A DNA stretch of 64,000 nt from Candidatus Ozemobacter sibiricus (GCA_003327425.1 QOQW01000007.1:71901-135900), one strand, 5' to 3'; positions 5,019 through 58,678 are shown, counted from the stretch's first letter. Program-made: numbers and translations. Notes: generated from the sequence alone by a model not told the origin.

Positions 5019-5197
5019 CTCCGGGCATCACCATAGCAGGCGGGAACCACGCTTGGCAAGGGCCTGCTCAGAAGCCCTCTCTTGCGGGTTCACGCGACCG
5101 GGGGAGGTGGTCGACGCTTCCTTGAGTCGCAAGAGGTCGAGCCTGGCGGTGTGCGGTGGGAGGCGACCTGGCCGGAGGCTGGGAGCGGAGCCGGGGG

Positions 5198-5239
5198 GAG
5201 AAAAGCACGACGCCGGAACACGGGATGCCGTGTTCCGGC
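5198..5239 (-). terminator. Putative intrinsic terminator of the C25 peptidase gene
   Basis: 12-bp perfect stem GCCGGAACACGG/CCGTGTTCCGGC with 4-nt loop (5212..5239), followed on the minus strand by GTCGTGCTTTTCTCC (T-run) about 30 nt after the stop codon. Confidence 0.5.
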
Positions 5240-5266
5240 GCCGGAAAAGGACCGCGGACGGAAGGA

Positions 5267-7459: not shown

Positions 7460-7665
7460 TCCGGTTCCTCCTGGACGGGTTCGCATCTTCAGACACGAAT
7501 GTCGGGGTCGGGAAAAGCAATTCCGGTGCCAGCACGGAATTGCTGGCGGCAAGGGATTCGCGGCGATCTGGCGGCGAGAAAGTGCCGGAAATCCATCGGC
7601 GGGCGACGAAATTCCGTGCCCTTGCCCGCTGTCAGCTTGGGCGAAATTGTGCTACCCTGGCCCCC

Positions 7666-20282: not shown

Positions 20283-20299
20283 AGCTCCAGGAGCAGCAC

Positions 20300-21682
20300 A
20301 TGAACTCGACGCTCAAGGTTGGAATACTCACGCTGGCCGCCTGCGCCCTCCTCATCTACATGGTGTTCGTCATCGGAGATCTGCGCCTCACCGAGAAGGG
20401 CTACCGGTTCGTCATCAGTTTCTACGCCGTCAACAGCTTGAGCGTGGGGTCGACGGTCTCGATGGCGGGCGTCAAGATCGGCAAGGTCGAACGCATCGAG
20501 ATCGACGATGACCAGGTGCTCGTGCATGTCTATATCCGAGACCAGAAGCATCGCATCCGTCGGCGCAGCACCTTCACGATCGGCACGGCCGGTCTGATGG
20601 GCGAGAAGTTCGTCGAGATCATTCCCACGCGCGACCAGACCTCCCCCTACGTCGCCGAAAACTCGGTGGTCGAGGGGACCGATCCGACCCGTATGGAAGA
20701 GCTGTTCGAGCAGGGCAACGAACTGCTCAAGAAACTGCAGGGGCTGGCGGTCTCGGCCAAGGACATCATCGGCGATCCGGAGCTGAAGGCCAGTACCAAG
20801 GCCATCTTCAAGAACGCGGAGTCGGCATCCGAGCGGGTGAAAGAGATGCTCGCCTCGGTGCAGCAGCGGGCCGACAGCATCGTGAGCAATCTCGACGACA
20901 TTCTCAAGCAGGCCCGCGACGAGGTGGAACTCAATCGGGAGAACATCCGCCGCATGATTACCAATCTGCGCGACTTCAGCCAGCGGCTCAACGACATTAC
21001 CGATGACAACCGCGCCAACCTGCGGGAGATCGTCGAGAACATCAAGGACGTCTCGGAACGGCTCGATCAGATGATTCTCGATCTGAACAAGGATCGCAAG
21101 ATGACCACCGAGCTGCGCGCGACCGTGGAGTCGCTGCGCAAGGCGTCCGACAACGCCAAGGAGATCACCCGCGAGGTCAAGGAGATCATCACCGAGAAGG
21201 ATATCCGCACCAAGATCAAGACCGGGCTCGACGATGCCCACAAGATCGCCCAGGCGGTCGACAAGGTCTTCCTCAACATCAAGCAGACCCGCATCGACTT
21301 CAAATACCTGCTGCGCTACCACAAAGAGAGCGACACCTTCTTCTCCGACATGATGGTCGACCTCTACCCCAACGAGAACAGCTTCTACCGCATCGGGGTC
21401 GAAGACATCGGCGGCGATCCGCTGTTCAACCTGATGCTGGCGCGCGATGCCCAGCAGCGGCTGATCAAGCGCGCCGGCGTCATCAGCTCGAAGGTCGGCC
21501 TCGGGTTCGACTACCAGTGGGCGCAGGACATCACCTACAGCCTCGACTTCATCGACACCCGCGATCCGACCGTGCGCTTCACCAGCGGCTATGCGCTCAA
21601 GCCGGGGCTCAAGTTCCAGTTGCGGGTCGATGACATCGCCGACAAGAAGGATATCAACTTCGCCATCGAGTACAAGTTCTGA
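20300..21682 (+). CDS. mlaD: MCE-domain protein MlaD with extended C-terminal helical region
   Basis: N-terminal TM anchor + MCE domain (…SVGSTVSMAGVKIGKVERIEID…) followed by ~300 aa of coiled-coil-rich sequence; position after mlaE-mlaF. Confidence 0.75.
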   Translation: MNSTLKVGILTLAACALLIYMVFVIGDLRLTEKGYRFVISFYAVNSLSVGSTVSMAGVKIGKVERIEIDDDQVLVHVYIRDQKHRIRRRSTFTIGTAGLMGEKFVEIIPTRDQTSPYVAENSVVEGTDPTRMEELFEQGNELLKKLQGLAVSAKDIIGDPELKASTKAIFKNAESASERVKEMLASVQQRADSIVSNLDDILKQARDEVELNRENIRRMITNLRDFSQRLNDITDDNRANLREIVENIKDVSERLDQMILDLNKDRKMTTELRATVESLRKASDNAKEITREVKEIITEKDIRTKIKTGLDDAHKIAQAVDKVFLNIKQTRIDFKYLLRYHKESDTFFSDMMVDLYPNENSFYRIGVEDIGGDPLFNLMLARDAQQRLIKRAGVISSKVGLGFDYQWAQDITYSLDFIDTRDPTVRFTSGYALKPGLKFQLRVDDIADKKDINFAIEYKF

Positions 21683-27765: not shown

Positions 27766-28560
27766 ATGACATTGGAACATGCTCTGGCCAGCCATGATCT
27801 CTGGGTGATCCTGGGGACCGCCGCCTTCCTCGGCTGCCTGCATACCTTGATGGGGCCTGACCACTACGTGCCGTTCATCATGATGTCCCGGGCCGAGCGC
27901 TGGTCCTGGCCGCGCACCATGTGGATCACCTTCCTGTGCGGCCTGGGACATGTCGGCAGCTCGTTCGTCGTCGGGTTGGGCCTGGGGCTGGTCGGCATGG
28001 CTGCCTCCAGTTGGGAAGACAGCGTCTGGGCCGGCTGGCACGAATGGCGAGGCGCGGGCAGTGCCTGGCTGTTGATCGGGGTCGGGGCCGCGATGACGGT
28101 GCATGCGCTCGTCCAGCACTGGCGCGGGAAGGTCCATACCCATGTCCATCGGCACGCCGACGGCCGTCTGCACGTTCACGCGCATGCCCATGACCCCGCA
28201 GCAGAACACGCCCACGTCCATCTGGCGGAGGGGCCTCACTCGCAGGACGAGCCGTCGGATGCTCCTCCGACCGGGTCGCGGTTGACCCCCTGGATCCTGT
28301 TCACCATCTTCGTGTTCGGGCCGTGCGAGTCGCTGATTCCCCTCATGCTGGCCGCTACCGCGGTGGCCGGCATTCCCGGCAGCCTGCTGACCGCCCTGGC
28401 CTTCTCGGTGACGACGGTCGCCACCATCCTGGCGGTGGTCGGGGTGCTGCTGTATGGCGTCGAACGCCTGTCCCTCGGGTTCCTGGAGCGGCATGCCCAG
28501 GCGCTGGCCGGTGTTTCTCTGGTCCTGTGCGGGGTCGCCATCCGCTTCCTGGGCTTGTGA
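27766..28560 (+). CDS. Nickel/cobalt efflux transporter-like protein (NicO/RcnA family)
   Basis: GCLHTLMGPDHYVP and GLGHVGSSF signature motifs; His-rich loop HTHVHRHADGRLHVHAHAHDPAAEHAHVH; 6 TM helices. Confidence 0.55.
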   Translation: MTLEHALASHDLWVILGTAAFLGCLHTLMGPDHYVPFIMMSRAERWSWPRTMWITFLCGLGHVGSSFVVGLGLGLVGMAASSWEDSVWAGWHEWRGAGSAWLLIGVGAAMTVHALVQHWRGKVHTHVHRHADGRLHVHAHAHDPAAEHAHVHLAEGPHSQDEPSDAPPTGSRLTPWILFTIFVFGPCESLIPLMLAATAVAGIPGSLLTALAFSVTTVATILAVVGVLLYGVERLSLGFLERHAQALAGVSLVLCGVAIRFLGL

Positions 28561-30223: not shown

Positions 30224-31606
30224 ATGCCGAAACATCTGACCACTCAAGCCAAGCTGATCGGCTTTTTGATCGTGGCCTTGCTCATCCCCGTTGGCGCGGC
30301 CAACTACATTCTGTACCGGGCGAAAGGGGCGACGGCGCAGGTGCCGGTCGTGCTCGGCGTGCGAGCCCTTCCCACCCAGGCGGAAACCAACCTCGATTTC
30401 GTGGAATACGTCAACTCCATGGGGGATCGGCTGGACAAGCTGGCCAACACCTTGCGCGACCTCGAGGCCTATGCGCGCTTCTTCCTGGTGGGATCGTTGC
30501 TGTTCATTCCGCTGGCCACCGTAGGATTCTGGGCCTTGCTGGAGGCTCTCAACGCCCCGATGCGGGAGGCTCTGAAAAAACTGGCCTATTTCCTGAACGA
30601 GGAACGAGGCGACGAGGACGGCGATGTGCAGACTGCCGCCGCCGAGTTCGAGAAATTCCTCATGACCGCTCGCAATATCCTGTCCGAGACCCGCTCCATC
30701 TCTCAGGAGCTGGTGAAGAAGATCGAGCCGCTGACCACCACCTCGGTCTTCTCCGACGAGAATGTCGGGCAGTTCTTCACCGATGTGCAGGAGATCTCCC
30801 GCAGTTCGAACTACATCGCCAATACCGTCGAAATGACCACGGCCAGCATCCAGGAGGTGTCGACCTCGGCCCAGACCATCGCCGAGCGATCCCAGGCCGC
30901 GGCGAGCGACAGCGCCGGGGCCGCCAAGGTGGCGGCCGAGGGACGCCGGGCCGTCACCGAGACGATCGGCACCATGGAGGCCATCAAAGACGAGGTCATG
31001 GCCCTGGAAGACCTGATCGAAAGTCTCAATTCGGCCAGCAAGCAGATCGGCGAGATCGTCAACACCATCACCGGCATCGCGCATCAGACCAACCTGCTGG
31101 CGCTCAACGCCGCCATCGAAGCTGCCCGCGCCGGAGAACACGGGCAGGGCTTCACCGTGGTCGCCGAAGAGGTGCGCAAGCTGGCCGAGGAGTCCGGAGA
31201 GGCCGCCGAAGACATCGGCAAGAAGATCAAGGGCATGCTCGAGAAGACCGGCAATGCCGTGCAGACCATCAGCAAGGGCACCGCCAAGGTCATCGAAGGG
31301 GTCAATGTGGCCAATGTTGCTGGCACCAACCTGACCCTGATCGTCAACTCGGTCACCAGCGTCAACAAGATGATCCAGGACATCAGCAACGCCAGCCGCG
31401 AGCAGTCGACCAACATCGAATCGCTGCGACAGAGCATCGAGAGCATCTCGGGCGCCACCAAGATCACTTCGGAAGGCACCAAGCGGGTGGCCAACGCGGT
31501 CAATGAGCAATTGAACTACATTCGTCAGTACATCGGCGTGTTGAAGGAGATCCTGACCCTCGTGCAGCTCATGGGCGACATGCTCGACAAATACAACTTC
31601 CGCTGA
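30224..31606 (+). CDS. Methyl-accepting chemotaxis protein
   Basis: N-terminal TM, conserved MCP signalling domain (…[36 protein letters not shown]…). Confidence 0.8.
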
Positions 31607-31801: not shown

Positions 31802-32824
31802 ATGTCCCCTGCATCATCCCTGTTGCCCATGGCGTTCGAAGAGTTCCAGAAGGCCGTGATCGGCCTGGGCCTGGAGAAGTTCCGGGCCCGGCAGGTCTGG
31901 GAATGGCTGTTCGGCAAGCTCGTCTTCGACTTCGCCGCCATGACCGACCTGCCGGTCGCGGCTCGACAGAAGCTGGCCGAGGCTTTCCCCGCCATCCTGC
32001 CCACCGACTACCAGACCTGGTGCGGGGCCGACGGGACGGTCAAGCTGGCCTTGCCGCTGGCCGATGGCGAAACCGTCGAAGCGGTCGGCCTGCCCGACGA
32101 CCAGACCTTGACCTTCTGCCTGTCGAGCCAGGTGGGCTGCCCGGTCGGTTGCGCCTTCTGCCGGACCGGGGCGCGCGGGTTCACGCGCAACCTCACCACC
32201 GAAGAGATCGCTCTCCAACTGATGCTGCTGGTCAAGGTCCTGCGGGCTCGGCCGACCAACATCGTGTTCATGGGCATGGGCGAGCCGTTCCTCAACCGGC
32301 CGGCAGTGTTCGGGGCGATCGATCTGTTCACCGATCCCCGCCAGCTCGGGTTGGCGACCCGGCGCCTCACCATCTCGACGGCCGGGGTGGTCGAGGGCAT
32401 CCAGGAGCTGGCCGAGCGCCCAGGGGAGGTCAACCTCGCCGTCTCCCTGCATTCCGTCGATGATTGGGTCCGCTCCCTGCTCGTGCCCCTCAACCGGCGC
32501 TACCCGCTCGCCCGGTTGCGGGCGGCCCTCGTCGACTACCTCGCCCGCACCAATCGCCGGGTCAGTTTCGAGATGACCCTGCTGAAGGGTGTCAACGACA
32601 GCCTCGCCGACGCCCTCAATCTCGTGCAGTTCTGCGAGGGACTCCTGTGCCACATCAATCTCGTCCGCTTCAATCCCTTCCCAGGGTGTGCCTACAAACC
32701 AGCCCCCGAAGCCGCCGAGAAGGAGTTCCGCAAGGTGCTGAAGAAGGCGGGGCTGCCCGTCACCGTCCGGCGGTCCCGGGGGGCCGACATCCTGGCGGCA
32801 TGCGGACAGCTCGCCGGAAAGTGA
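31802..32824 (+). CDS. rlmN: 23S rRNA (adenine2503-C2)-methyltransferase RlmN (radical SAM)
   Basis: CLSSQVGCPVGCAFCRTG radical-SAM cluster motif and overall RlmN/Cfr collinearity. Confidence 0.9.
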   Translation: MSPASSLLPMAFEEFQKAVIGLGLEKFRARQVWEWLFGKLVFDFAAMTDLPVAARQKLAEAFPAILPTDYQTWCGADGTVKLALPLADGETVEAVGLPDDQTLTFCLSSQVGCPVGCAFCRTGARGFTRNLTTEEIALQLMLLVKVLRARPTNIVFMGMGEPFLNRPAVFGAIDLFTDPRQLGLATRRLTISTAGVVEGIQELAERPGEVNLAVSLHSVDDWVRSLLVPLNRRYPLARLRAALVDYLARTNRRVSFEMTLLKGVNDSLADALNLVQFCEGLLCHINLVRFNPFPGCAYKPAPEAAEKEFRKVLKKAGLPVTVRRSRGADILAACGQLAGK

Positions 32825-32828
32825 AGCC

Positions 32829-34016
32829 ATGGCCAAGAAAGAATCCTGTCTGTTGATCCTGGTCAAGATGCTGATCTTGATCTCGCTGCTGATCGCCGGC
32901 GTCGTGGCCGCCTTTTTCTACCTGCGGGGGCAGCTCAACGAGTATTTCAACCGGGGCGAGACCATCGAAGTGCCTGATTTCAAGGGCAAGCACCTGGTCC
33001 AGGTCTTCAAGGAAAAGCCGGCCGACCTCGTGATCGAGAAAGCCGACGAGAAGTTCGATCCGCGCTATCCCAAGGATTTCGTCATCGCGCAGTATCCCGA
33101 GGCCGGAACGCGGGTCAAGCCCAACAAGAAAGTCCTGCTGACCATTTCCCTGGGCAGCAAGCAGGTCAATGTCCCCGACCTCTTCCAGCGCAACCTGCGC
33201 GAATCGCGGCTGGCGCTGCTGAATGCCCAGCTCCTCGAAGGGAACCTGGCCTACATCCGTTCGGGCAAGGTCGATCGTGATCGGGTCATTACCCAGTCGC
33301 CCCTGCCGGCCATGGGCCAGGCGGTGCAGGGCAAGGTCGATCTGCTGGTCAGCCTGGGGCGCGGCCCGGTCCGGATGCCCCTGCCCAACCTGACGGGCAA
33401 GACCCTCAACGAGGCCCAGACCAGCCTGACCGCCTGGGGCCTCAAGCCCGGCCGGGTCATCACCCGCAAAGATCCTTCCCGGCCCTCGCAAACGGTCATT
33501 TCGACGGTCCCCGCGCCGTTCGAGCCGGTCGGGGAAGGAACGACCGTCGATCTGCTGGTCTCTTCCGGCAACGAACCAGGTACCGCCAAAGCCGGAGACC
33601 TCGAACGCTTCGAGTTCACGGCCGGGGCGGCGGCCGAGGTCACGGCCGCGCCGGCCAAACCGCGCGATGAACCCAAGCCCGCCGCGGCCGCGGCCACCCC
33701 CGCTGCCCCTGCCGCCCCCGCGGCGCCGCAGATCTTCCTCGCCGATGATCCCGCCCCGCCGCAGGTGGTGCCCCCGCCGCCGGTGACGCCGCCCGCGCCC
33801 GGTGCCGAGACCAGTCAGATCTCGTTCGTCATGCCCGACGGCTTCATGCCCAAGGAGGTCAAGTTCTTCCAGGTGTCGCGGGAAGGCCGCACCCAGGTCT
33901 ACACGGGCACCCATAAACCCCTCGACCTGATCAAGGTGACGGTGCCCCGTATCCCGTCCAGCAAGATCCAGATCTACATCAACGATGTTCCCATCGAGGA
34001 ACGTCCGGTGCAATAG
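32829..34016 (+). CDS. Membrane-anchored PASTA-domain protein (three PASTA repeats, Pro/Ala-rich linker, C-terminal domain)
   Basis: N-terminal TM (LILVKMLILISLLIAGVVAAFFY), three PASTA-like units (VPDFKG…, VPDLFQRN…, MPLPNLTGKTLNEAQ…), low-complexity PA-rich segment. Confidence 0.7.
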   Translation: MAKKESCLLILVKMLILISLLIAGVVAAFFYLRGQLNEYFNRGETIEVPDFKGKHLVQVFKEKPADLVIEKADEKFDPRYPKDFVIAQYPEAGTRVKPNKKVLLTISLGSKQVNVPDLFQRNLRESRLALLNAQLLEGNLAYIRSGKVDRDRVITQSPLPAMGQAVQGKVDLLVSLGRGPVRMPLPNLTGKTLNEAQTSLTAWGLKPGRVITRKDPSRPSQTVISTVPAPFEPVGEGTTVDLLVSSGNEPGTAKAGDLERFEFTAGAAAEVTAAPAKPRDEPKPAAAAATPAAPAAPAAPQIFLADDPAPPQVVPPPPVTPPAPGAETSQISFVMPDGFMPKEVKFFQVSREGRTQVYTGTHKPLDLIKVTVPRIPSSKIQIYINDVPIEERPVQ

Positions 34017-34051
34017 ATTCCCCGCACCAGAGACCAGCGGAGGCTGCAGGA

Positions 34052-35338
34052 ATGATTGGCACGATCATCAATGGCAGATATGAGCTGCTCCAGACGCTCT
34101 CGGAAAGCCATCAGTTCGAAGTATTCACCGCCCTCGAGCGCGAGACGGGCGCCACCGTCGTCGTCAAGCTTCTGCGCGAAGAGCTGTGCGACAACCAGGA
34201 GCGGGTCCGGATCTTCTGCGAAGAGGTCAAGGCCTTCGCCGCCCTTTCCCACCCTGGCATCGTCCACATCCTCGATATGGATCAGTTCGGTCGCCGTCCC
34301 TTCGTCGTCACCGAGCTGGTCGAGGGAGTCGACCTGAAAACCTGGATGCAGAGCGGAACTGCTTCCTTCAAAGACGTTGGCCGGGTCGTGCAGGAGCTGG
34401 CCACTGTTCTGCAATACGCTTGCGACCAGAAAGTGACGCGCCGTTCGATCAAGGTCTCCAATGTCTTTCGGCGGCGGGACGGGTCGATCAAGGTGCTCAC
34501 CTTTTCCCACCCTCGTCTCAAGCTGGTCGGCGCCGAGTCGCGCAGCTATGATGAAGCGGCCGGGGTGCAGTCCGACCTGTTCTTCCTGGGCACGACCATG
34601 TTCGAACTGCTGACCGGAGAATCGCCCATCCGCAAGCGAGGGGGCCTGCACGAACTGTGGGAGTCCCGCTTGCGACAGGCTCTGCGGGTGCGGCACGCCC
34701 ACCTGACGCCTGACGATATCGATCGCGTGGTCGATTTCCTCGATCGCACTCTGACCCGGAATGTGCAGCGGCGCTTCGAGTCGCATGCCGCGTTCCTGAT
34801 GGGGTTGTCCGACCTCTTGCACGCCTCGGAAGGCGCTCTGCGCAAGGAACGGGGGCCGGCCGCCCGCGTCGCCCTGGCCACCGCCGCCGAGGTCGTCGAT
34901 GCCATCCATGGTCGCCTGCCCGGTCCGTCGGTCGGTTCGGTCGGCTCTGCCCGTTCTGCCGCGGCGGACGTGGCGCCCCTGGCCATCGGTCGCCAGGCTC
35001 GTCAGGCGGTCAGCCCCGCCCGCCTCGGGTCGGAGGCTGCCGCCTCGCTCGGAGCGGGCGCGGCCATGCTCGCTGTCTCCGCCGACTCCGGGGGAGCCGC
35101 CCTGGCCATCTCGGCCGAGGCCGAACCTCTGCCCGCCGAGCCGTCGCCTGACCTGGAGGAAGACGTGCCCCCCGCTTCTTCCTCGCCGCGCCTGACCGTG
35201 GTGTCCCGCTCGGGGCGGACGGCAGCGACCAGCCAGATCTGGCGCAAAGCCGAGGAACAGACCCGTTGGTGGCGCAATCCTCTGTTCCTGATGGGCGGGC
35301 TGCTGCTGCTCATGATCATCCTGATCCTGTTCTGGTGA
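34052..35338 (+). CDS. Ser/Thr protein kinase-like protein with degenerate catalytic motifs (probable pseudokinase), C-terminal TM anchor
   Basis: Kinase fold recognisable (VVVKLL lysine, …KVSNVF…, …TFS…, APE-like GTTMFELLTGESP). The Gly-rich loop is absent. HRD is replaced by RRS and DFG by TFS. C-terminal TM LFLMGGLLLLMIILILFW. Confidence 0.65.
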   Translation: MIGTIINGRYELLQTLSESHQFEVFTALERETGATVVVKLLREELCDNQERVRIFCEEVKAFAALSHPGIVHILDMDQFGRRPFVVTELVEGVDLKTWMQSGTASFKDVGRVVQELATVLQYACDQKVTRRSIKVSNVFRRRDGSIKVLTFSHPRLKLVGAESRSYDEAAGVQSDLFFLGTTMFELLTGESPIRKRGGLHELWESRLRQALRVRHAHLTPDDIDRVVDFLDRTLTRNVQRRFESHAAFLMGLSDLLHASEGALRKERGPAARVALATAAEVVDAIHGRLPGPSVGSVGSARSAAADVAPLAIGRQARQAVSPARLGSEAAASLGAGAAMLAVSADSGGAALAISAEAEPLPAEPSPDLEEDVPPASSSPRLTVVSRSGRTAATSQIWRKAEEQTRWWRNPLFLMGGLLLLMIILILFW

Positions 35339-35343
35339 GGGGT

Positions 35344-36051
35344 ATGAACCGGCCGCTGCTCGCCCCTTCCATCCTCTCCGCCGATTTCGCGCGTCTCGGC
35401 GAGGAACTCGCCGTCGTCACCGCCAGCGGTGCCGACTGGGTCCACCTCGATGTCATGGACGGCCATTTCGTGCCGAACCTGACGTTCGGGCCGCCGGTCA
35501 TCGCCCACCTCAGACGTCATTCCCAGTTGCCGTTCGACGTCCACCTGATGATCGAACAGCCGCAGCAGTGGCTGAAGATCTATCGCGAGGCCGGCGCCGA
35601 TCGGCTGACCATCCACCTCGAGGCGTGCCGGCATGTGCAACGGCATCTGGTCGAGATCCGGCAGTTGGGCGCGGCCGCCGGACTGTGCCTCAATCCGCAG
35701 ACCTCCCTGGCTGGGCTCGAGTACCTCCTGCCCGATTGCGACCAGGTGCTGATCATGACCGTCAACCCCGGCTTCGGCGGACAGTCGCTGCTCGAACCGG
35801 TGGTCGGCAAGATCGCCGATCTGCGTCGGCTCATCGACCGGATGGGTCTGCCGACCCTCATCGAGGTCGATGGCGGCATCGATGCCACCAATGCGCAAAG
35901 GATCCTGGCCGCTGGTGCCGATGTATTGGTTATGGGCTCGGCCTTCTTCCGGACGGAAGAGAAGCCAGCCCTGGTTGCCCGGATCCATGGGATGACCACG
36001 CGCGCACGACGAGGCAAACGACATCATGGAAGGTCCACGCCATCTGCATGA
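35344..36051 (+). CDS. rpe: Ribulose-phosphate 3-epimerase
   Basis: HLDVMDGHFVPN, DVHLM, MTVNPGFGGQ, VDGGI motifs. Confidence 0.85.
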   Translation: MNRPLLAPSILSADFARLGEELAVVTASGADWVHLDVMDGHFVPNLTFGPPVIAHLRRHSQLPFDVHLMIEQPQQWLKIYREAGADRLTIHLEACRHVQRHLVEIRQLGAAAGLCLNPQTSLAGLEYLLPDCDQVLIMTVNPGFGGQSLLEPVVGKIADLRRLIDRMGLPTLIEVDGGIDATNAQRILAAGADVLVMGSAFFRTEEKPALVARIHGMTTRARRGKRHHGRSTPSA

Positions 36052-37372
36052 GCTGCTGTCACAGCTCGAGGAGCAAAGCCAGGAAACCCCGAACGATCTG
36101 AATCTCTTGCGCAAGCTGGGCCGCCTGTACCTGCGCAACGGCTCGGTGGCGGCCGCGGTGCGCGTCTTCCAACGCCTCCTGGCCCAGGCGCCCGACGATC
36201 TGGCCGCGTCGGTCGACCTGGCCCTCAGCCAAGCTCGGCTCGGCCAGATCGAAGAAGCGCGGTTCCTGCTCGAACGTGCCCTGGAAGTGGCGCCTCGATC
36301 GGCCACCGTGCTGGTCGCCATGTCGCAGGTCTGCGAGATGGCCAAAAACACCGAAGGGCAGGTCACCTTCCTCATGCGCGCGGCCAATGCCGCTCCTCAG
36401 CGTCCCGAGATCCGGCTCGCGCTGGGAGAGATCCTACGGCGGCATGGCGATTTCGCGGGGGCGATCCGGCAGTATGAGGCCGTCCTGGCCGTCCACCCCC
36501 ATCTCGAGGCGGCCCGCTTCGCGCTCGCGGCGCTCCTGATCCGGCAGAACCGGCTCAACGAGGCCATGGACCACCTGCGGGCCATCATCCGGCTGAACCC
36601 CAGCGCCCACGATGCCCATTATAACCTCGGTCACTGTCTCTTCCGTCAGAAGAAATGGGAACTGGCGACCGCCTCGTTCATGGCGGCCATGAAAGGGATG
36701 AAAGACCATCCCCAGCTGCATTACCAGCTCGCCATCTGCCAGTTCCACCTCAAAGACTGGGACCGGGCCATCGTCCACATGGAGCGGTATGCCGCTCTGC
36801 TGCCCGGGTCGTTCGAGGCCCAGCTCGCCTTGGGCGACCTCTACCAGCAGGCGGGAGAGCCCGACCTCGCGCGCGAGGTGTTCGCCGGGCTGGCCGATGC
36901 CTTCCCGCAGCGACCCGAGTCCTTCATCCGCCTGGCGAGCATCTGCCGCGACCTGCAGCGGTTCGACGAGGCGGAGCAGGCGCTGCGCCGCCTCTTCCAC
37001 CATCATCCTGGTCATATCGAGGGGCATCGTCTGCAGGCCGATCTGCATTTCGCCAGGGGCCAGTGGAAAGCCGCCCTCGACGAGTACCGCAACACCTTGT
37101 TGATGAACGAGAACTATCTGCCGGGGCGTCGAGGCGTGGCGGCGGTCTTCCGGCAGACCGGTCAGACCGCTGAAGAATTCGCCGCCCTGCAGAAGGTGGC
37201 CGCCCTGGCCCCCGATGATGTCGACGTGCTGCTGCGCCTGGGCGAACTCGAGAAGATCCTGGGCATGCCCAGCTGCCTGGACCGGTTCCGCAAGATCACC
37301 CAGTTGGCGCCTGATTCCTTGCAGGCCAAGGAGGCGAGCTACTACCTCCGCCACCTCGCCAAGGCTGGCTGA
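36026..37372 (+). CDS. TPR-repeat protein
   Basis: Multiple TPR units (…AHYNLGHCLFRQKKWELA…, …LQLAICQFHLKDWDRAI…). Confidence 0.6.
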   Translation: MEGPRHLHELLSQLEEQSQETPNDLNLLRKLGRLYLRNGSVAAAVRVFQRLLAQAPDDLAASVDLALSQARLGQIEEARFLLERALEVAPRSATVLVAMSQVCEMAKNTEGQVTFLMRAANAAPQRPEIRLALGEILRRHGDFAGAIRQYEAVLAVHPHLEAARFALAALLIRQNRLNEAMDHLRAIIRLNPSAHDAHYNLGHCLFRQKKWELATASFMAAMKGMKDHPQLHYQLAICQFHLKDWDRAIVHMERYAALLPGSFEAQLALGDLYQQAGEPDLAREVFAGLADAFPQRPESFIRLASICRDLQRFDEAEQALRRLFHHHPGHIEGHRLQADLHFARGQWKAALDEYRNTLLMNENYLPGRRGVAAVFRQTGQTAEEFAALQKVAALAPDDVDVLLRLGELEKILGMPSCLDRFRKITQLAPDSLQAKEASYYLRHLAKAG

Positions 37373-37498: not shown

Positions 37499-38788
37499 AT
37501 GAGTCTGGCCATGGATCGCCTGCTGGCTTCGCTGCTTCTGCTCGATCTCGTGGCCTGGCTGCTCTGGGAACTGGTCGGTTGGGGGCTTGATGGAGCGCGG
37601 GGCCGGACGGAGGACGGGGAACCGCGGTCCCCGCGTCTGGCCCCGACCCGGCCGGCCGCCGTGCTTTATCCGGCCCCTCCCCGGGCGTCACCGCCGCCGG
37701 GAGCGGAGGCCGAACCGGCGCTGGCCGACTGCGATCGCCGCTTCCTGGCCCGGGTCGGGCGAGAACGCCGCTTGACCGCGGCCGAAAAGGGCAAGCTGGT
37801 GGAATTGGCCAGGCACGCCGCACCCGAGCTGCAGTGGGAAGCCGTTTCGATTCTCGTCGACGATCCCGATCAGCACCCGTTCATCTGGCGATGGCTCGAG
37901 GAGCAGGATCGCCGTCTGCTCGAACTCGTCCGGCGGTTGATGGAGACGGGGGAGATCACCCTTTCCCCGGAGCTGGTCGCCATGTTGGAAGGGTTGAGCG
38001 CAAGCCCGGATGCTTCGCCCTCGACTTTCCCTTCCCAGGCTCCTGTCGCGCTTCCCCCTGCCGATTCAACGCCGGTCGGCCCCAGCGAGGTCATTCCCGA
38101 ATACGCCGGGGCTCACGAACTGTTCCTCGCCCTGCAGCATTTTCAGGATCTGCCAGCGGATATTCGCACGGAACAGGCGACGGCGCTCATCCAGAACGGT
38201 CTGCTGGCCTCCGACCCCTATGTGCGAGGCGCGGCCGTGGCGGCCATGGGGCGCTGCTCGATTCAAGATGCCTCGCTGCATCTCCGTCGCCTGCTTGGGG
38301 ACGAATCGTCGTATGTGCGAGGGTGCGCGGTCGATGCTTTGTGCGAACTGGAAAAAGCCGGGGCGCTTTCGGCGTTGGAGCAGGTCTTGCAAGACGAAGA
38401 CACCCTGGAGGTCCTGGAAATCGTTCTGGTCAACCTCTCTCAAATGAACGTGCCGGAAGCCCTCCAGACGCTCGATCGTCACCTCGATCATCTGCCTGAA
38501 CCCATCCTGCCCATGGCGCGCCGGGTGCGACAAAGCCTGGCCAGAAAGGTGGCGCCCTCCCGGCCGTGCTCTTCACGACCAGAGGCCGAACCGGATGGCC
38601 AGGGCCAGCCCGGCCGCCAGGTGCAGGAGCAACGCCCCTTTGAGGGCTTTTCTGGCGAGGGAGGTGGGGCCATGCGGGAAGATGCCGGCCAGGCCCAGCA
38701 GCACGAGGGGGCCGGCCCATCCCCAGGCCGGAATGGCCAGCGCGGCGGCCGTTCCGACGCCGAACCAGGGGAAGAACCGCCCCGGTGA
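37499..38788 (+). CDS. Membrane-anchored HEAT-repeat protein
   Basis: N-terminal TM; HEAT/PBS-lyase repeats (DPYVRGAAVAAMGRC…, SSYVRGCAVDALCEL…). The low-complexity C-terminal ~70 aa overlap pilD on the opposite strand, so the 3' end is uncertain. Confidence 0.5.
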   Translation: MSLAMDRLLASLLLLDLVAWLLWELVGWGLDGARGRTEDGEPRSPRLAPTRPAAVLYPAPPRASPPPGAEAEPALADCDRRFLARVGRERRLTAAEKGKLVELARHAAPELQWEAVSILVDDPDQHPFIWRWLEEQDRRLLELVRRLMETGEITLSPELVAMLEGLSASPDASPSTFPSQAPVALPPADSTPVGPSEVIPEYAGAHELFLALQHFQDLPADIRTEQATALIQNGLLASDPYVRGAAVAAMGRCSIQDASLHLRRLLGDESSYVRGCAVDALCELEKAGALSALEQVLQDEDTLEVLEIVLVNLSQMNVPEALQTLDRHLDHLPEPILPMARRVRQSLARKVAPSRPCSSRPEAEPDGQGQPGRQVQEQRPFEGFSGEGGGAMREDAGQAQQHEGAGPSPGRNGQRGGRSDAEPGEEPPR

Positions 38789-39343
38789 GGGCCCGCGCGT
38801 GGCGAGCCATCCGGCGATGGTGCCCAGCACCGGAGCCAGAGCCCAGACGGCCAGCCAGGGGCCACCTGCCACCCAGGTCAGAACCGCGAAAGCCAGCAAC
38901 GGCCAGAGAAAAGGGCCGGGCGCGGCCACTTCTTCCCGGATCAACAGCATGGTCTGGATCAGCCAGATGATGGCCCAGGCGGCGGTCGGCACCAGCTGGC
39001 GGCTTGCCCCCCAGAACCAGAACGAGGAGGCAAGAATGAGGGCGGCGGCCAGCTCGACCAAGGGATACTGGATGGAGATGGGCGCCTGACAATATCGGCA
39101 GCGGCCTCGCAGCATCACCCATCCGAAGATCGGGACGAGATCGAGGGCGGACAGACGGTGGTGGCAATGGGGGCAGGCCGACGGCGGGAAGACCACCGAT
39201 CGTCCTTCCGCCATACGCAGGATGACGACGTTGGTAAAGCTGCCCAACAGGCTGCCGAAGATGCCGAACAACATCGCCCCGGCGGCCAGGGGCAGCCCCG
39301 GGGAACCGCCCAGAGGATCAGGAATGTCGGACCAGAACCCCAT
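38573..39343 (-). CDS. pilD: Prepilin peptidase / N-methyltransferase PilD (A24 family)
   Basis: Tetra-Cys zinc motif CPHCHH…CRYC, conserved A24 helices; start at internal ATG (MGFWSD) of the long ORF 38573..40054. Confidence 0.85.
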   Translation of the reverse strand: MGFWSDIPDPLGGSPGLPLAAGAMLFGIFGSLLGSFTNVVILRMAEGRSVVFPPSACPHCHHRLSALDLVPIFGWVMLRGRCRYCQAPISIQYPLVELAAALILASSFWFWGASRQLVPTAAWAIIWLIQTMLLIREEVAAPGPFLWPLLAFAVLTWVAGGPWLAVWALAPVLGTIAGWLATRGPSPGRFFPWFGVGTAAALAIPAWGWAGPLVLLGLAGIFPHGPTSLARKALKGALLLHLAAGLALAIRFGLWS

Positions 39344-39351
39344 GATCGACC

Positions 39352-41217
39352 TCACGCTGAGGGGTAGGATGGAGATGGTGACGGTAGGATATCCGAGCCC
39401 GCTTTCCAGTACAACCGAATCACGATGCCGACAGCCAGCAGAGCGAGGACCATGCCCACGGTACGGCGCGGAGAATGAACGCGGAAGAGGCGAAAGGTGC
39501 CGCCGCCTCCGGGGAGTTCGGCTCGGAGCTGTCCGCAGGGCCCGTACGGCGACAGGGAAATGCGCTGGCCCGTTTCCGCATGTTCGAGGGCCCACCCCTG
39601 ATCGTAGTGCGTCCAGCCGATCAGGATTCCTCCCGAGGCGGGAAGGTCTGCGTGAAATATGGCCTCGTGACGGCTGTTGTGCCGGAGTTCGAGGCGGGCT
39701 TCCCCGCTGGCCAGCACCTGGAGCTGATGATAAGGTCCTGCTCGGGCCGAGATCGGTCTGGGCAGACGACAATCGGCCAGGTGACAGGTGGCCGGCACGT
39801 ATTCGCAGGGATAATGGAAATCGCCAACCAGAAAGCGTTCCATCAAGTCCGTCGACAAGGGAATCGCCGTGCCTTGGACCCACAGAGCCGTAAACACCCA
39901 CATGGCGAAGCTGCTCCAGCCCGTCAAGGTGATGAGCCGGTTCAGCTGGCCTGAGCCGGCACCTGTCGCCGGCACCCACCACCCAGTCATCGCCGGGATC
40001 AGCAGAATGGTGCCCGGCCACACCCATCGCCATGGATATTGCAACGAGGCCCAACCTGGCATCCAGTGCCAGAGAGGCAGACTGATTCGGGAACTCAGCC
40101 CCAGGCCAACCATCCCGCAGATCATGGCCAGCAGGACCGGATGATCGCAGCCGAGCCGGCCGCTGGCCAAGGCGAGCAACGCCAGGCCCACGGCCAGGGC
40201 GACCGCCACGCGCATGGCCAGCCGGAAATTGGGTCGCTCGAGTCCCAGAAAAGAGGGAGGAGGCGTGTCGAGCTGTGGCGGCAGTGCGGCTGGCCCAAGA
40301 GGGTCATCCAGGAAGCTCTGGTGCGCCCAGGGTTGCTGCTTCTCGAGATGCGAGGAGAAATGCAATGAATCCAGCTCAGGGAGGGCCTCCAGAAGATAGG
40401 GGGCGGTCAACGCGGCCGCCAGCAGCGGCATCAGGAGCACGTTCCGCCAGGCAAGCCGCCCTGTCTTTCCCCAGAGCCAGGCCAGGAGCACCCACCCGGC
40501 CGCGAGGTAGCCCATCATCAGGGCGGCGGGCAGGTGCGTCCAGGCGATCAGGCTGCCCACCAAAGCCCCCTGCGCCAGAGCGGCCTGGTCACCTTCACGG
40601 CCCAGGCGGGTCAACGCCTCGAGCACCCAGGGAAAGAGCGCCATGGCACAGATGTTCTGGAACAGGAACACCCGGAACAAATGAATACTGACCACGGGAT
40701 TGGCCAGGAACAGCACCACCGCCAGCGGGGCGCGGTCTGCCAGCCCCAGGCAGGCCATCCATCGCACCAATCCCCATGTACCTGCGAGAAGGAAGACGAT
40801 CACCGTGGCCCGCAAGGCCGTGGCCGCCGACCAGCCGAGATACTGGAACCCGCTGGCCACGAGGTAGGCGCCTGGCGCATAGAAGCGGAAAGCGGCGGTT
40901 CCTCTTCCCTCGTAGATGGCGGCATCCCAATCGGGCCGGGTTCCCTCTTCCGCCAGAGTCAGGGCGAATTCTTGACTGAAGTACAGGTGGAAAGGAACAT
41001 CCCACGCGTCGGCCAGGGGACTCAGCCACAGGAACCATCCCTGTCCCAGGATCAGGCCAGCCAGGGTCCACATCGCCAGCGGGAAGAACCCAGAAAGGGC
41101 CCATTGTCCAGGCCTCTCGGCGAGTGAGCCGGCGTCTGGAGAGGCCTGTTGCGGGAGCCCGCCGAACAGGGTGGGGGGGGAAGGAGACATTGAGCCGGGA
41201 TTCCTTGGCAAGAGCAA
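39352..41217 (-). CDS. Large polytopic membrane protein, possible GT-C-type glycosyltransferase (pilin-modification candidate)
   Basis: 621 aa, >10 predicted TM helices with an extracytoplasmic-loop acidic motif (…RPDWDAAIYEGRG…); lies between pilA and pilD like TfpW/TfpO-type pilin glycosyltransferases. Confidence 0.5.
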   Translation of the reverse strand: MLLPRNPGSMSPSPPTLFGGLPQQASPDAGSLAERPGQWALSGFFPLAMWTLAGLILGQGWFLWLSPLADAWDVPFHLYFSQEFALTLAEEGTRPDWDAAIYEGRGTAAFRFYAPGAYLVASGFQYLGWSAATALRATVIVFLLAGTWGLVRWMACLGLADRAPLAVVLFLANPVVSIHLFRVFLFQNICAMALFPWVLEALTRLGREGDQAALAQGALVGSLIAWTHLPAALMMGYLAAGWVLLAWLWGKTGRLAWRNVLLMPLLAAALTAPYLLEALPELDSLHFSSHLEKQQPWAHQSFLDDPLGPAALPPQLDTPPPSFLGLERPNFRLAMRVAVALAVGLALLALASGRLGCDHPVLLAMICGMVGLGLSSRISLPLWHWMPGWASLQYPWRWVWPGTILLIPAMTGWWVPATGAGSGQLNRLITLTGWSSFAMWVFTALWVQGTAIPLSTDLMERFLVGDFHYPCEYVPATCHLADCRLPRPISARAGPYHQLQVLASGEARLELRHNSRHEAIFHADLPASGGILIGWTHYDQGWALEHAETGQRISLSPYGPCGQLRAELPGGGGTFRLFRVHSPRRTVGMVLALLAVGIVIRLYWKAGSDILPSPSPSYPSA

Positions 41218-41719: not shown

Positions 41720-42781
41720 TCAGCCCCCCTTCAACATGCGTTCCAGCTCCTTCGGATGGAGGGTATGCATGATCGCTTCTTCGAGGGTGATGTCGCCGCG
41801 CAGATACAGGTCTTTGAGGGATTGCTCGAAGGTCATCATGCCCTCGTTCTGGCTGGTCTGCATGATGGTATAGAGGCCGGAGATCTTCTGTTCGCGAATG
41901 CAGTTGGCGACGGCAGGGTTGCCGATCAGGATTTCCGTGGCCACCACGCGCCCCTTGCCGCTGGCCATGGGGAGCAGTTGCTGGGCGACGACCGCCCGCA
42001 GGACGAACGAGAGCTGTGAGCGGATCTGCGGCTGCTGGTGGGGCGGGAAGATATCGATGATGCGGTTGATGGTCTGGGCGGCATCGGTGGTATGCAGGGT
42101 GCCGAAGACCAGGTGGCCGGTTTCCGCCATGGTCAAGGCCGCGCTGACCGTTTCGAAGTCGCGCATCTCGCCCACCAGGATGACATCGGGGTCCTGGCGC
42201 AGGATGTGCCGCAGCGCTTCGGCGAACGAGGTGGTGTCGATGTGGAGTTCTCGTTGGTTGACGATCGATTTCTTATGGTAATGCAGATATTCGATCGGGT
42301 CTTCGACGGTGATGATGTGGCAGCGTTGTTCCTCGTTGATGATGTTGATCAATGAGGCCAGGGAGGTCGACTTGCCTGACCCCGTGGGGCCGGTGAACAA
42401 AACCAAGCCCTTGTTCCATTTGGTGAAATCACGCAATTTTGGCGGAAGCCGAAGATCTTCCAGGGATGGGATCTTAGTCGGGATGACCCGGAAGGCGGCA
42501 CCGATGCAGCCACGTTGCTTGTACACATTGACGCGGAAGCGGCCGAAGCCATGGACCGAATAGGAGATGTCCAGTTCGAGGTTCTCCTCGAACTCCTTCT
42601 GTTGCTCGGCCGTCAGCATGTTGTAGACCAGCGATCGGGTATCCATGGGCGTGAGGACATCAAGGTCGGTAGGGATCAATTCCCCGTCGACCCGGATGAC
42701 CGGAGGGCTGCCCACGGTGATGTGCAGGTCCGAGGCCTCGTTCTCGATGACGATGTTCAGCAGGTCGTTGAGGACGAACAT
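41720..42781 (-). CDS. pilT: Twitching-motility ATPase PilT
   Basis: Collinear with PilT (N-terminus MFVLNDLL…ASDLHITVG), Walker A GPTGSGKST, Walker B ILVGEMRD, His box GHLVFGTLHT. Confidence 0.9.
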   Translation of the reverse strand: MFVLNDLLNIVIENEASDLHITVGSPPVIRVDGELIPTDLDVLTPMDTRSLVYNMLTAEQQKEFEENLELDISYSVHGFGRFRVNVYKQRGCIGAAFRVIPTKIPSLEDLRLPPKLRDFTKWNKGLVLFTGPTGSGKSTSLASLINIINEEQRCHIITVEDPIEYLHYHKKSIVNQRELHIDTTSFAEALRHILRQDPDVILVGEMRDFETVSAALTMAETGHLVFGTLHTTDAAQTINRIIDIFPPHQQPQIRSQLSFVLRAVVAQQLLPMASGKGRVVATEILIGNPAVANCIREQKISGLYTIMQTSQNEGMMTFEQSLKDLYLRGDITLEEAIMHTLHPKELERMLKGG

Positions 42782-42836
42782 TTCCCAGCTCCTTGCGGCG
42801 TGATCGCCGTGTTTCTGTCGCTCTTCGGGTACTGTA

Positions 42837-44579
42837 TCAATGCTCACCCATGGTGACGCGGACGACTTCTTCCAGGGAGGTGATGCCTGTCAGTGCCTTG
42901 CGGAGGGCCGATTCGCGCAGGGACAGCATCCCTTCTTCGATGGCCTGCCGGCGGATGTCATCGGTGGAGCCGCCGTTGAGGATGATTTCGCGCAGGCGTT
43001 CCGACATCACCATGACCTCGTACACCCCGATGCGGCCCTTGGTGCCCGAGTTGTTGCAGGTCTCGCAGCCTTTGCCCTTGTAGAAGAGCATGTTCTTCTC
43101 GTTGATGTGCGGCAATTCGAGCCGGCGCAGCAGTTCGGGCGTGATGCCGAACTGGGCGATCTGCTCGGCGCGCGGTTTGATCTCGAATTTGCAGTCCTTG
43201 CAGATCTTGCGCACCAAGCGCTGCGCCTGCACCAGCAGGACCGACGTGGTGACCATGAACGGTTCGATCCCCATGTTGACGATACGGCCGATCGTGCCGG
43301 GGGCGTCGTTGGTGTGCAGAGTGGACAGCACCAGGTGACCGGTCATCGACGCCTTGATGGCGATTTCGGCGGTTTCGAAATCGCGGATCTCGCCGACCAT
43401 GATGATGTTCGGGTCCTGGCGGAGGAAGGCGCGCAGCGCCGCCGCGAAGGTCAGGCCGATTTCGGGCTTGCAATGGACCTGATTGATGCCCTGGAGCATG
43501 TATTCGACCGGATCTTCCGCCGTCATGCAGTTGACTTCGATGCGGTTGAGACTGGTCAAGGCCGAATACAGCGTGGTGGTCTTGCCTGATCCGGTGGGGC
43601 CGGTGACCAGGATGATCCCGTAGGGGGAGGAAATGCCGTTCTTGAAGCGTTTCAGGGTTTCCGGCTCGAATCCCAGATCTTCCAGGTTGACGCGGAGGGC
43701 GCTCTGGTCCAGGATGCGCATGACGATCTTCTCGCCCCAGATGACCGGCAGGACGCTGACACGCAGGTCGATCATACGGTTGGCGACCTTGATTTTGATG
43801 CGGCCGTCTTGCGGCAGGCGTTTCTCGGCGATGTTCAGGGACGACATGATCTTGATGCGGGAGGTGATGGCCGCCGTGGCCTTCTTGGGCGGGGTCATGG
43901 CGGTGAACAACATGCCGTCCTGGCGATAGCGAATGCGCAGTTCTTTCTCGAAAGGTTCGATGTGGATGTCGGACACCCCGTTCTGGACTGCCTGGGAAAT
44001 GACCAGGTTGCAGAGGCGGATGATCGGGGCGTCGTTTTCGCCCAGTTCGCCGAGCTGATCGAGGTCATCCGGTCCTGCTTCTTCCTTGCCGATGTCGTCG
44101 AGTTCGCCCATCAGTTTGTCTTGCTGGGCGACCGCGCCGTAGGCGTCTTGCAACGCTTTGTTGATGTCGGTCTGCGTGGCCACGACCGGTTTGACCATCA
44201 GTCCGGTCAGCAACTGGATGTCATCGATGGCGATGATGTTCAAGGGATCGACCATGGCCACCGTCAGCTTGTTGCCGACCTTATTGATCGGGATCAGCAT
44301 GTGCCGCTTGGCCAGATGCTCGGGGACCAGTTTGGCGATGACCGGGTCGATCAGGTAGTTGGACAGGTCGATGAAGGGGATCTTGAGCTGCTTGGACAGG
44401 ATCTGGACGATGTCGTGCTCGGTGACGAGGTGCATCTCGACGAGGACGGCACCCAGGCGTTTGCCGCTCTTCTTCTGCAGAGCGAGCGCCTGCTGCAGCT
44501 GCTCTTCATTGATGAGACCTTCGGCGATGAGGGCATCGCCCAGACGCATCTTTTTGGCAGCCTGTTGAATATCCGTCAT
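42837..44579 (-). CDS. pilB: Type IV pilus assembly ATPase PilB (GspE family)
   Basis: 580 aa, N-terminal GspII_E domain, Walker A GPTGSGKT, tetracysteine CKDC…CETC motif. Confidence 0.9.
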   Translation of the reverse strand: MTDIQQAAKKMRLGDALIAEGLINEEQLQQALALQKKSGKRLGAVLVEMHLVTEHDIVQILSKQLKIPFIDLSNYLIDPVIAKLVPEHLAKRHMLIPINKVGNKLTVAMVDPLNIIAIDDIQLLTGLMVKPVVATQTDINKALQDAYGAVAQQDKLMGELDDIGKEEAGPDDLDQLGELGENDAPIIRLCNLVISQAVQNGVSDIHIEPFEKELRIRYRQDGMLFTAMTPPKKATAAITSRIKIMSSLNIAEKRLPQDGRIKIKVANRMIDLRVSVLPVIWGEKIVMRILDQSALRVNLEDLGFEPETLKRFKNGISSPYGIILVTGPTGSGKTTTLYSALTSLNRIEVNCMTAEDPVEYMLQGINQVHCKPEIGLTFAAALRAFLRQDPNIIMVGEIRDFETAEIAIKASMTGHLVLSTLHTNDAPGTIGRIVNMGIEPFMVTTSVLLVQAQRLVRKICKDCKFEIKPRAEQIAQFGITPELLRRLELPHINEKNMLFYKGKGCETCNNSGTKGRIGVYEVMVMSERLREIILNGGSTDDIRRQAIEEGMLSLRESALRKALTGITSLEEVVRVTMGEH

Positions 44580-57722: not shown

Positions 57723-57816
57723 ACAACCGTCCTCCACGGCCAAAAAGCCATGAAAATAGAATGCTCCAGGTCAAACCATCGGCACCTCTGGGGAAAACCC
57801 ATAGGGAGAAGAATCG

Positions 57817-58674: not shown

Positions 58675-58678
<4 letters not shown>

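Follow-up and report, generated by a model that had tools for sequence, protein, structure and literature searches.

The PASTA kinases of the PrkC, Stk1, StkP and PknB type (family NF033483) carry a kinase domain, a transmembrane helix and an array of PASTA repeats on a single polypeptide, and in Bacillus subtilis the gene lies within the order yloN prpC prkC cpgA rpe (PMC8359813). Here we describe a locus in a stretch of 64,000 nucleotides (nt) from Candidatus Ozemobacter sibiricus (GCA_003327425.1 QOQW01000007.1:71901-135900; the whole stretch is hereafter called the window) in which the same slot, between rlmN and rpe, holds a two-gene arrangement: a stand-alone membrane protein with three PASTA repeats, followed by a separate, tail-anchored protein with a PknB-like kinase fold and a degenerate active site.

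Parts of this arrangement have described counterparts. PknI of Mycobacterium tuberculosis is a single-pass membrane Hanks-type kinase reported to adopt a pseudokinase-like state, and the MviN (MurJ) pseudokinase of mycobacteria recruits FhaA after phosphorylation by PknB, serving as a scaffold in peptidoglycan synthesis. In an atlas of bacterial serine/threonine kinases the membrane-attached MviN pseudokinase, which has an attenuated activation loop, is placed in the family ActPs3 (10.1101/2025.01.12.632604). The same atlas distinguishes seven pseudokinase families (CP1, DYD, ActPs1-3, DLHK and GLW), all with a substitution of the VAIK lysine, and the families that lack both the HRD and the DFG aspartate in 100% of their members also lack the VAIK lysine in 100% (10.1101/2025.01.12.632604). 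In Pseudomonas, sensor and kinase are encoded separately: a membrane CHH (Cache_heme-HAMP) receptor and a PknB-like kinase are operon partners that bind each other; this kinase is soluble and catalytically competent, with VALK, HRD and DFG intact, and docks onto HAMP via C-terminal helical bundles (10.64898/2026.05.25.727664). Our literature search, whose coverage was incomplete, found no paper on stand-alone PASTA proteins or on a PASTA protein combined with a pseudokinase. The split pair of a PASTA protein and a pseudokinase presented here is genuine and conserved, and is apparently a variant of the PASTA kinases that no one has described before; its anatomy and evolutionary context are well supported, and its mechanism is one that we infer.

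The locus consists of four genes on the + strand (31802-36051), separated by spacers of 4, 35 and 5 nt:

31802..32824, + strand: rlmN, radical-SAM 23S rRNA/tRNA A-C2 methyltransferase, the upstream synteny anchor (TIGR00048, 331 bits, cut-off 290; RlmN_N and Radical_SAM matches).
32829..34016, + strand: stand-alone PASTA membrane protein of 395 amino acids (aa) (PF03793, E 1.7e-23).
34039..34043, + strand: GGAGG ribosome-binding site inside the 35-nt spacer, read from the sequence, 8 nt 5' of the pseudokinase ATG.
34052..35338, + strand: tail-anchored PknB-like pseudokinase of 428 aa (Pkinase, E 1.7e-18, profile positions 14-142 only).
35344..36051, + strand: rpe, ribulose-phosphate 3-epimerase, the downstream synteny anchor (TIGR01163, 273 bits, cut-off 212.6).

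The original prediction had described rlmN and rpe as flanking a three-PASTA membrane protein and a separate kinase gene, and all of these were found where it had placed them. Its span, ending at 36051 (+), also stands, with one correction: both the sequence and the gene calls put the start of rpe at ATG 35344, and the TTG at 35266 that opens the longest open reading frame (ORF) is a wrong start. That PP2C and rsgA are missing, as it had further stated, holds for the locus and for the entire window: neither the Pfam annotation of publicly available gene calls nor our own two-strand scans of the ends not covered by them, antisense ORFs included, revealed a PP2C, an RsgA or a second Hanks-type kinase. 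No PP2C was found in the related loci of Riflebacteria and Muiribacteria, either. We detected no terminator-like site on the + strand between 30 and 38 kb, a span that includes the genes from rlmN to the tetratricopeptide-repeat (TPR) gene behind rpe. In the databases the PASTA-only protein is named 'Ser/Thr protein kinase PrkC' and the pseudokinase 'protein kinase', misleading names which the present analysis corrects.

The kinase-like protein is composed of three parts, described here from an AlphaFold2 (AF2) model, for which confidence is given as the predicted local distance difference test (pLDDT) score, and from the ratio of nonsynonymous to synonymous substitution rates (dN/dS):

34052..34915, + strand: kinase-fold domain with a degenerate active site, aa 1-288 (complete bilobal fold, AF2 pLDDT ~90).
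34916..35236, + strand: disordered juxtamembrane linker, aa 289-395 (pLDDT <50 at aa 289-404; dN/dS 0.35-0.9).
35237..35335, + strand: conserved juxtamembrane motif IWxxxEExxWx(R/K)NP, then the C-terminal transmembrane helix, ending LILFW at the last residue.

The family that fits this protein best is NF033483, which it matches over model positions 1-151 only and with 105.3 bits (cut-off 450; the next family scores 68 bits), its N-terminus, MIGxxIxGRYEL, aligning from model position 1. PknA, StkP and PknB are its top sequence matches in the PDB. The predicted fold is that of a Hanks-type bilobal kinase, for which Foldseek returned the kinase domains of PknB, PknA and Stk1 as best matches (E 4e-16, target-normalised TM-score ~0.76), and among the Foldseek matches the kinase domain of M. 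tuberculosis PknI had the lowest root-mean-square deviation (3.4-3.6 Å; target-normalised TM-score 0.78-0.80). The C-terminal half had no match in Pfam.

Alignment to PknA and within the family confirmed that this kinase is degenerate, as had been predicted. The Gly-rich loop (G-loop; L16-V24) reads LSESHQFEV and contains no glycine; in the catalytic loop, R130-R131-S132-I-K134-V-S136-N137, HRD has become RRS; and DFG is replaced by T150-F151-S152 (TFS), after which comes an invariant PR(L/S). Compared with PknA, ~18 residues are missing from the activation and P+1 segments, with aa 156-162 forming a short stretch of low confidence in the model, and a basic RKRGG loop is present at aa 194-198. 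Retained are the beta3 lysine, Lys39, in every orthologue, the alphaC glutamate, Glu58, in the 21 aligned family members, and Lys134 and Asn137 of the catalytic loop, of which Lys134 is Asn in several species; Arg131 and Ser136 are invariant. In a motif table of more than 40 orthologues, the HRD aspartate, the DFG aspartate and any G-loop glycine were each absent from all members (the table is based on tblastn-guided extraction, as extraction by regular expression missed half of the orthologues). The protein is a phylum-wide conserved pseudokinase rather than a decaying gene, and it has what defines a Hanks-type pseudokinase in the generic sense: a kinase fold without the HRD and DFG aspartates, shared across orthologues. 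Phosphotransfer by this protein has probably been lost, and any signalling through it would probably proceed without phosphorylation, because the kinase half no longer has its catalytic residues.

The same protein is a tail-anchored one, with a single transmembrane helix at its extreme C-terminus and no N-terminal signal. Its only hydrophobic segment occupies aa 410-428 of 428, modelled as a helix at aa 410-427 with pLDDT >90. Within and just before this helix, W397 and W428 are invariant, E402, W406, P410, G415, M421, L424, I425 and F427 are conserved in at least 90% of the alignment, and the LILFW terminus is kept in nearly all orthologues. Two conserved islands stand out in the disordered linker, G(G/N)xALA (approximately aa 346-351) and, further on, (R/K)PxLx(L/V) (approximately aa 377-383), and A350 is invariant.

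In the product of the upstream gene, an N-in signal anchor is followed by three PASTA repeats, then by a disordered Pro/Ala linker and, at the C-terminus, by an immunoglobulin (Ig)-like domain:

32847..32921, + strand: transmembrane anchor, aa 7-31 (the sole Kyte-Doolittle segment >1.6, after the basic cytoplasmic N-terminus MAKKES).
32964..33572, + strand: three PASTA repeats, aa 46-110, 112-178 and 183-248 (three alpha+beta units in the AF2 model).
33573..33803, + strand: disordered Pro/Ala-rich linker, aa 249-325 (pLDDT <50 at aa 264-324; gappy alignment columns, variable length).
33804..34013, + strand: Ig-like six-strand beta domain, aa 326-395 (pLDDT ~90; strands within aa 326-393 in the AF2 model).

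In the AF2 model of this protein (pLDDT 78 overall) the N-terminal helix covers aa 4-40, and K13, M14 and L21 of the anchor are nearly invariant in the family alignment. By sequence, aa 46-249 align to the PknB PASTA domains in 2kui (PASTA1-3; phmmer against the PDB, E 9.4e-10), and PASTA is the sole Pfam domain in all of more than 120 orthologues. The NF033483 model matches the protein at positions 333-563 only, its transmembrane and PASTA half, with 108.3 bits (cut-off 450). NF033483 is in this way the best curated family of both proteins, and the parts of the model that they match, 333-563 and 1-151, are complementary. The top Foldseek match was the entire ectodomain of S. aureus PrkC, 3py9 (E 1.3e-15, 363 columns), compared with which the three-PASTA fragment 3m9g was a poorer match (E 7.8e-11); weaker matches to the C-terminal domain were Ig or FN3 folds. 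This C-terminal beta domain is the best-conserved part of the protein (FVMPDGFMPKEVKF ... QIYINDVPIEER), with invariant columns from M335 to N385. It had no Pfam match at E <= 10, and a 17-sequence profile of it gave only a chance match in the PDB (E 1.7); in the predicted model it resembles the PrkC Ig-like domain, by its fold and by its position in the 3py9 alignment.

Set beside the PASTA kinases, the pair shares with them the rlmN-rpe slot, a kinase fold closest to PknB, PknA and Stk1, and a disordered juxtamembrane linker; a single transmembrane helix precedes three PASTA repeats and an Ig-like domain at the end of the chain, the layout of S. aureus PrkC (3py9), but here on a separate protein. 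It differs in that there are two polypeptides, each with its own transmembrane helix and with the PASTA gene first, in the loss of two Asp residues (the catalytic one and that of DFG) and of both the Gly-rich and the activation loop, in the absence of PP2C and RsgA from the locus, and in its hosts, which belong to diderm candidate phyla, whereas PASTA kinases are known from the monoderm Firmicutes and Actinobacteria. The pair falls outside NF033483 itself, since it is not a single polypeptide, scores 108.3 and 105.3 bits against the cut-off of 450, has lost the catalytic motifs and has no PP2C partner at the locus. The system would work like the PrkC/PknB-type PASTA kinases, from which it probably descends.

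By analogy, the MviN pseudokinase-FhaA module of mycobacteria would be the closest functional counterpart. It differs in that MviN is fused to a flippase with 14 transmembrane segments and lacks the VAIK lysine, whereas the protein described here stands alone, is tail-anchored and keeps this lysine, is paired with a PASTA protein and has no FHA gene nearby. The pseudokinase families of the atlas likewise have conserved Hanks-type folds with substituted catalytic-triad residues, but the present family keeps the lysine and lacks both aspartates in all members, a distinction that is drawn from the published descriptions. PknI, in contrast, retains the catalytic Asp residues, carries an extracytoplasmic domain of its own on the same chain and has no PASTA partner. 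The closest precedent for dividing a sensor and a PknB-like kinase between two chains would, again by analogy, be the CHH receptor and its kinase; here, however, a PASTA array takes the place of the sensor, its partner is a tail-anchored pseudokinase, and the interaction is putative.

Both proteins belong to Candidatus Riflebacteria (Ozemobacteraceae), and the split is conserved across this group. The PASTA protein has 100% identity to a database entry named for Candidatus Ozemobacter. Three independent assemblies (a JGI metagenome, NCBI GCA_020725785.1 and Logan) contain an identical kinase-like protein flanked by the same genes. Scanning one genome per GTDB species yielded 39 loci, nearly all labelled Riflebacteria, and the PASTA gene and the pseudokinase gene were adjacent in 39/39 of them as well as in further metagenome contigs, the species-representative pairs being 37-77% identical and encoded by intact full-length ORFs. 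A fused PknB at this locus in related genomes, which the original prediction had named as the case that would speak against a split, was looked for and did not occur in any of the 39. The order MCP-rlmN-PASTA-kinase-like-rpe-TPR (MCP, a methyl-accepting chemotaxis-type protein) was found in every Riflebacteria locus with enough flanking sequence, and in more distant members that were looked up individually. About 34 pseudokinase orthologues were detected at E <= 1e-70. In most orthologous loci the spacer between the two genes measures 17-50 nt. Two Riflebacteria loci (L030 and L033) have gaps of 316 and 422 nt, for which a mis-called start or a small inserted ORF is possible.

Purifying selection acts on both genes: the dN/dS of the kinase domain was 0.10, 0.19 and 0.08 in three comparisons, and that of the PASTA repeats 0.07-0.23, with 0.07 against an orthologue of 88% identity. 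The two ORFs lie in different frames.

An exhaustive profile search of 1.84 billion representatives recovered about 15 full-length clusters of the pseudokinase family at the 50% identity level (E <= 1e-87) and, at E 1e-45 to 1e-56, shorter and also tail-anchored relatives from Candidatus Muiribacteriota. These too are pseudokinases, with YRTxKxSN as catalytic loop and SFN or KFT in place of DFG, and their own next-best relatives are fused PASTA kinases. Muiribacteria loci read STAS-DUF116-PASTA protein (320-322 aa)-pseudokinase-rpe, with the two genes overlapping by 4 nt; the module stays beside rpe even though DUF116, and not rlmN, lies upstream. The PASTA proteins encoded there have the transmembrane helix, three PASTA repeats and C-terminal beta domain, and the Pro/Ala linker is absent from them (L050-L052). 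A third lineage, on a Logan contig of 2980 nt (SRR22388293, locus L052), has a PASTA gene (315 aa) followed by a pseudokinase gene (376 aa). The active site of this lineage (P0312) is even more degenerate, with FRHVEMDN as its catalytic loop and KFT for DFG. The two-gene module predates the two candidate phyla, Riflebacteria and Muiribacteriota, or was exchanged between them.

A locus with a fused PASTA kinase (L053, protein P0371) links these arrangements to the canonical one. It reads def-fmt-DUF116-Zn peptidase-rsmB-rlmN-PP2C-PASTA kinase-RsgA-rpe, and so displays the order rlmN-prpC-prkC-rsgA-rpe which had been predicted for Firmicutes and which agrees with the published order of B. subtilis (PMC8359813). 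This single locus holds DUF116, rlmN and rpe, so that the slot of Riflebacteria, between rlmN and rpe, and that of Muiribacteria, between DUF116 and rpe, are one and the same neighbourhood. In both slots the PP2C gene, the fused kinase and RsgA appear to have been replaced by a gene for an anchored PASTA-Ig protein followed by one for a pseudokinase with a C-terminal transmembrane helix. The simplest route would be that a prkC-like gene was duplicated in tandem and the copies were then truncated reciprocally, the first losing the kinase domain and the second the PASTA region, because the order is inverted and both products keep a transmembrane helix.

Riflebacteria have been placed among the diderm Terrabacteria, with OmpM (10.1101/2021.05.31.446380). 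Diderm hosts fit the Mla, FadL-like and secretin-type genes that we found in the window and in related loci.

On balance we lean towards the view that this is a remodelled PrkC/PknB-type PASTA-kinase locus of diderm Terrabacteria, encoding a two-chain, non-catalytic PASTA receptor with a pseudokinase scaffold. The two chains would be co-transcribed as single-pass membrane proteins and would replace one kinase-transmembrane-PASTA polypeptide: the PASTA protein, a type-II anchored ectodomain chain, would be equivalent to the outside half of PrkC, and the pseudokinase, a tail-anchored cytoplasmic chain, to the inside half, made up of the kinase domain and the juxtamembrane linker. In the periplasm the PASTA array would bind peptidoglycan precursors or fragments. 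The parallel transmembrane helices and the adjacent juxtamembrane segments would associate, rebuilding a PknB-like transmembrane assembly, and the chains may also be held together by the acidic EE cluster of the pseudokinase, pairing with the basic residues at the start of the PASTA protein. Ligand-dependent localisation or clustering could then be passed to the pseudokinase, which would act, without phosphotransfer, as a scaffold or allosteric regulator of cytoplasmic partners in wall synthesis or division, possibly the neighbouring TPR protein.

We regard it as possible, and hold more tentatively, that the pair is an obligate two-chain receptor for phosphorylation-free wall signalling in at least two diderm candidate phyla, derived from a prkC-like gene by duplication and truncation, its cognate phosphatase lost and the TPR protein perhaps its output in Riflebacteria.

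Several observations point to a two-chain receptor. The soluble domains of the two single-pass proteins are predicted to lie on opposite sides of the membrane, and the predicted orientations of the transmembrane helices fit a parallel pair. The transmembrane and juxtamembrane residues of both proteins appear unusually conserved for simple anchors. In a mirror-tree comparison, the distance matrices of the PASTA protein and the pseudokinase correlated with r = 0.97, and with a partial r = 0.72 when controlled for the neighbour genes; the partial correlation with rlmN or rpe was ~0. In its distances the TPR protein likewise follows the PASTA protein and the pseudokinase (partial r 0.54 and 0.67), but neither rlmN nor rpe, which weakly suggests that it may be a third partner.

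The conserved acidic EE of the pseudokinase (35237-35280, aa 396-410) would face the conserved basic MAKK of the PASTA protein (32829-32846, aa 1-6), and the Muiribacteria proteins have comparable pairs of acidic and basic residues; the two patches are a candidate for a contact site.

A number of points weigh against this view of the locus. The association of the PASTA protein with the pseudokinase is itself something that we infer, and the mirror-tree result is suggestive, as similar evolutionary rates could give the same pattern, for the TPR protein too. Binding of a PASTA ligand (muropeptide or lipid II) is presumed from homology. As Lys39, Glu58, Lys134 and Asn137 are kept, nucleotide binding or atypical catalysis is conceivable. 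The absence of PP2C, FHA and an active Hanks-type kinase refers to the 64-kb window and the related loci. Finally, duplication and truncation are a tentative proposal for the origin, because the transmembrane helix of the pseudokinase has no detectable alignment to that of PknB and its NF033483 match ends at position 151.

It is unlikely, in our judgement, that the two genes are independent leftovers of a broken prkC whose adjacency is inherited synteny only, with the PASTA protein acting alone, for instance as a periplasmic factor that binds peptidoglycan or recruits hydrolases, and the pseudokinase in an unrelated scaffold role. PASTA-only proteins are routinely annotated with no further remark, and PASTA is the sole Pfam domain throughout the present family; rlmN and rpe are conserved neighbours as well, with no known functional link; and the association of the two proteins is putative. 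Yet the genes are adjacent, co-oriented and close or overlapping in two candidate phyla although the gene upstream shifts from rlmN to DUF116, the membrane and juxtamembrane regions are strongly conserved in both proteins, and the covariation of their distance matrices exceeds that seen with rlmN and rpe.

A role of the pseudokinase as partner or substrate of an active Hanks-type kinase encoded elsewhere, whose activity the PASTA protein would direct to the places where the wall is built, seems to us similarly improbable. It could take the form of an allosteric N-lobe dimer partner or of a phospho-acceptor platform that recruits FHA proteins, akin to MviN with PknB and FhaA, which provide a precedent. 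The N-lobe is well conserved and PknB-like, and the long disordered linker contains conserved short motifs and many Ser and Thr residues, which speaks for such a role; but no active kinase, FHA protein or PP2C was found in the 64-kb window or in the related loci of ~13 kb, the regions to which this count applies.

We find it more doubtful that the kinase-like protein is not dead and that the pair is a genuine if unconventional split PASTA kinase, with retained nucleotide binding and atypical catalysis (such as non-canonical phosphotransfer, ATPase activity or NMPylation, the transfer of a nucleoside monophosphate) through Lys39, Glu58, Lys134, Asn137, Arg131 and Ser136. Some proteins classed as pseudokinases, such as CASK, WNK and SelO, did prove active, and here the beta3 Lys, the alphaC Glu and the Lys and Asn of the catalytic loop are kept, with several nearby residues invariant. 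However, the HRD-Asp, the DFG-Asp and every G-loop glycine are missing in all orthologues, the activation and P+1 segments are deleted, Lys134 itself gives way to Asn in several species, the P0312 lineage is more degenerate still, and there is no PP2C partner at the locus.

That an ordinary fused PknB was split here by an assembly error or a frameshift, or has recently decayed into a pseudogene, is practically inconceivable and was ruled out by the three independent assemblies that share the protein and its locus, the intact ORFs of the pair in 39 species representatives at 37-77% identity, dN/dS values of ~0.1, the different frames of the two ORFs and the gene order, which is reversed relative to the fused kinase, such that a fusion in the present order makes no topological sense, because the kinase would follow an N-in anchor and an extracytoplasmic PASTA array.

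Two further genes adjoin the four of the locus:

30224-31606, + strand: methyl-accepting chemotaxis-type protein (MCPsignal, no recognised sensor domain), directly 5' of rlmN.
36026..37372, + strand: cytoplasmic TPR protein (matched by several TPR families), overlapping the 3' end of rpe by 26 nt.

The former is syntenic in most Riflebacteria loci, with 56-89% identity. The TPR gene is syntenic in all Riflebacteria loci, and was not present in the Muiribacteria loci examined.

Elsewhere in the window, a HEAT-repeat ORF (37499-38788, + strand), called in the JGI annotation and not in the NCBI annotation of the same sequence, overlaps by ~216 nt a convergent prepilin-peptidase gene (A24_N_bact; 38573-39343, - strand), next to which lies a gene for a conserved protein of 573-612 aa without a Pfam match. 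Genes for MlaE, an ABC ATPase, MlaD, ATPases of type IV pilus or type II secretion systems, a ComGC-like pilin and a FadL-like protein lie at ~18748-21682 (+), 41720-44579 (-) and 39352-41217 (-); the Mla, pilus or secretion and FadL-like genes of the window fit a diderm envelope. Between prfA and prmC, at 27766-28560 (+), is a gene for a polytopic membrane protein of 264 aa with a His-rich loop, HTHVHRHADGRLHVHAHAHDPAAEHAHVH, and no Pfam family on record, possibly a metal transporter. The - strand encodes a gingipain-type Peptidase_C25 with its propeptide (5267-7552), and the long ORF that lies over it on the + strand (5156-7729) has no family match and is probably spurious. Two giant ORFs on the - strand, 47934-57743 (3269 aa) and 58675-63945 (1756 aa), contain Ig-like repeats of the Big_13, Big_5 and FlgD_ig families, and a strongly positive GC skew over 48-64 kb coincides with them.

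PASTA kinases are central cell-wall-sensing regulators of Gram-positive bacteria and targets for antibiotic adjuvants, and it is debated which share of their function needs catalysis and which is achieved by PASTA-mediated localisation or scaffolding alone. The locus described here resembles a natural experiment on this question, in which entire phyla of diderm Terrabacteria have retained the sensor and the kinase fold on two chains, with the catalytic residues removed and the phosphatase dropped from the locus. If the interaction of the two proteins is true, the pair would offer a clean system for kinase-independent PASTA signalling, would extend the bacterial pseudokinases by a family with a motif pattern, Lys kept and both Asp lost, that is unlike those catalogued, and would document the permutation of a receptor kinase at the level of an operon.

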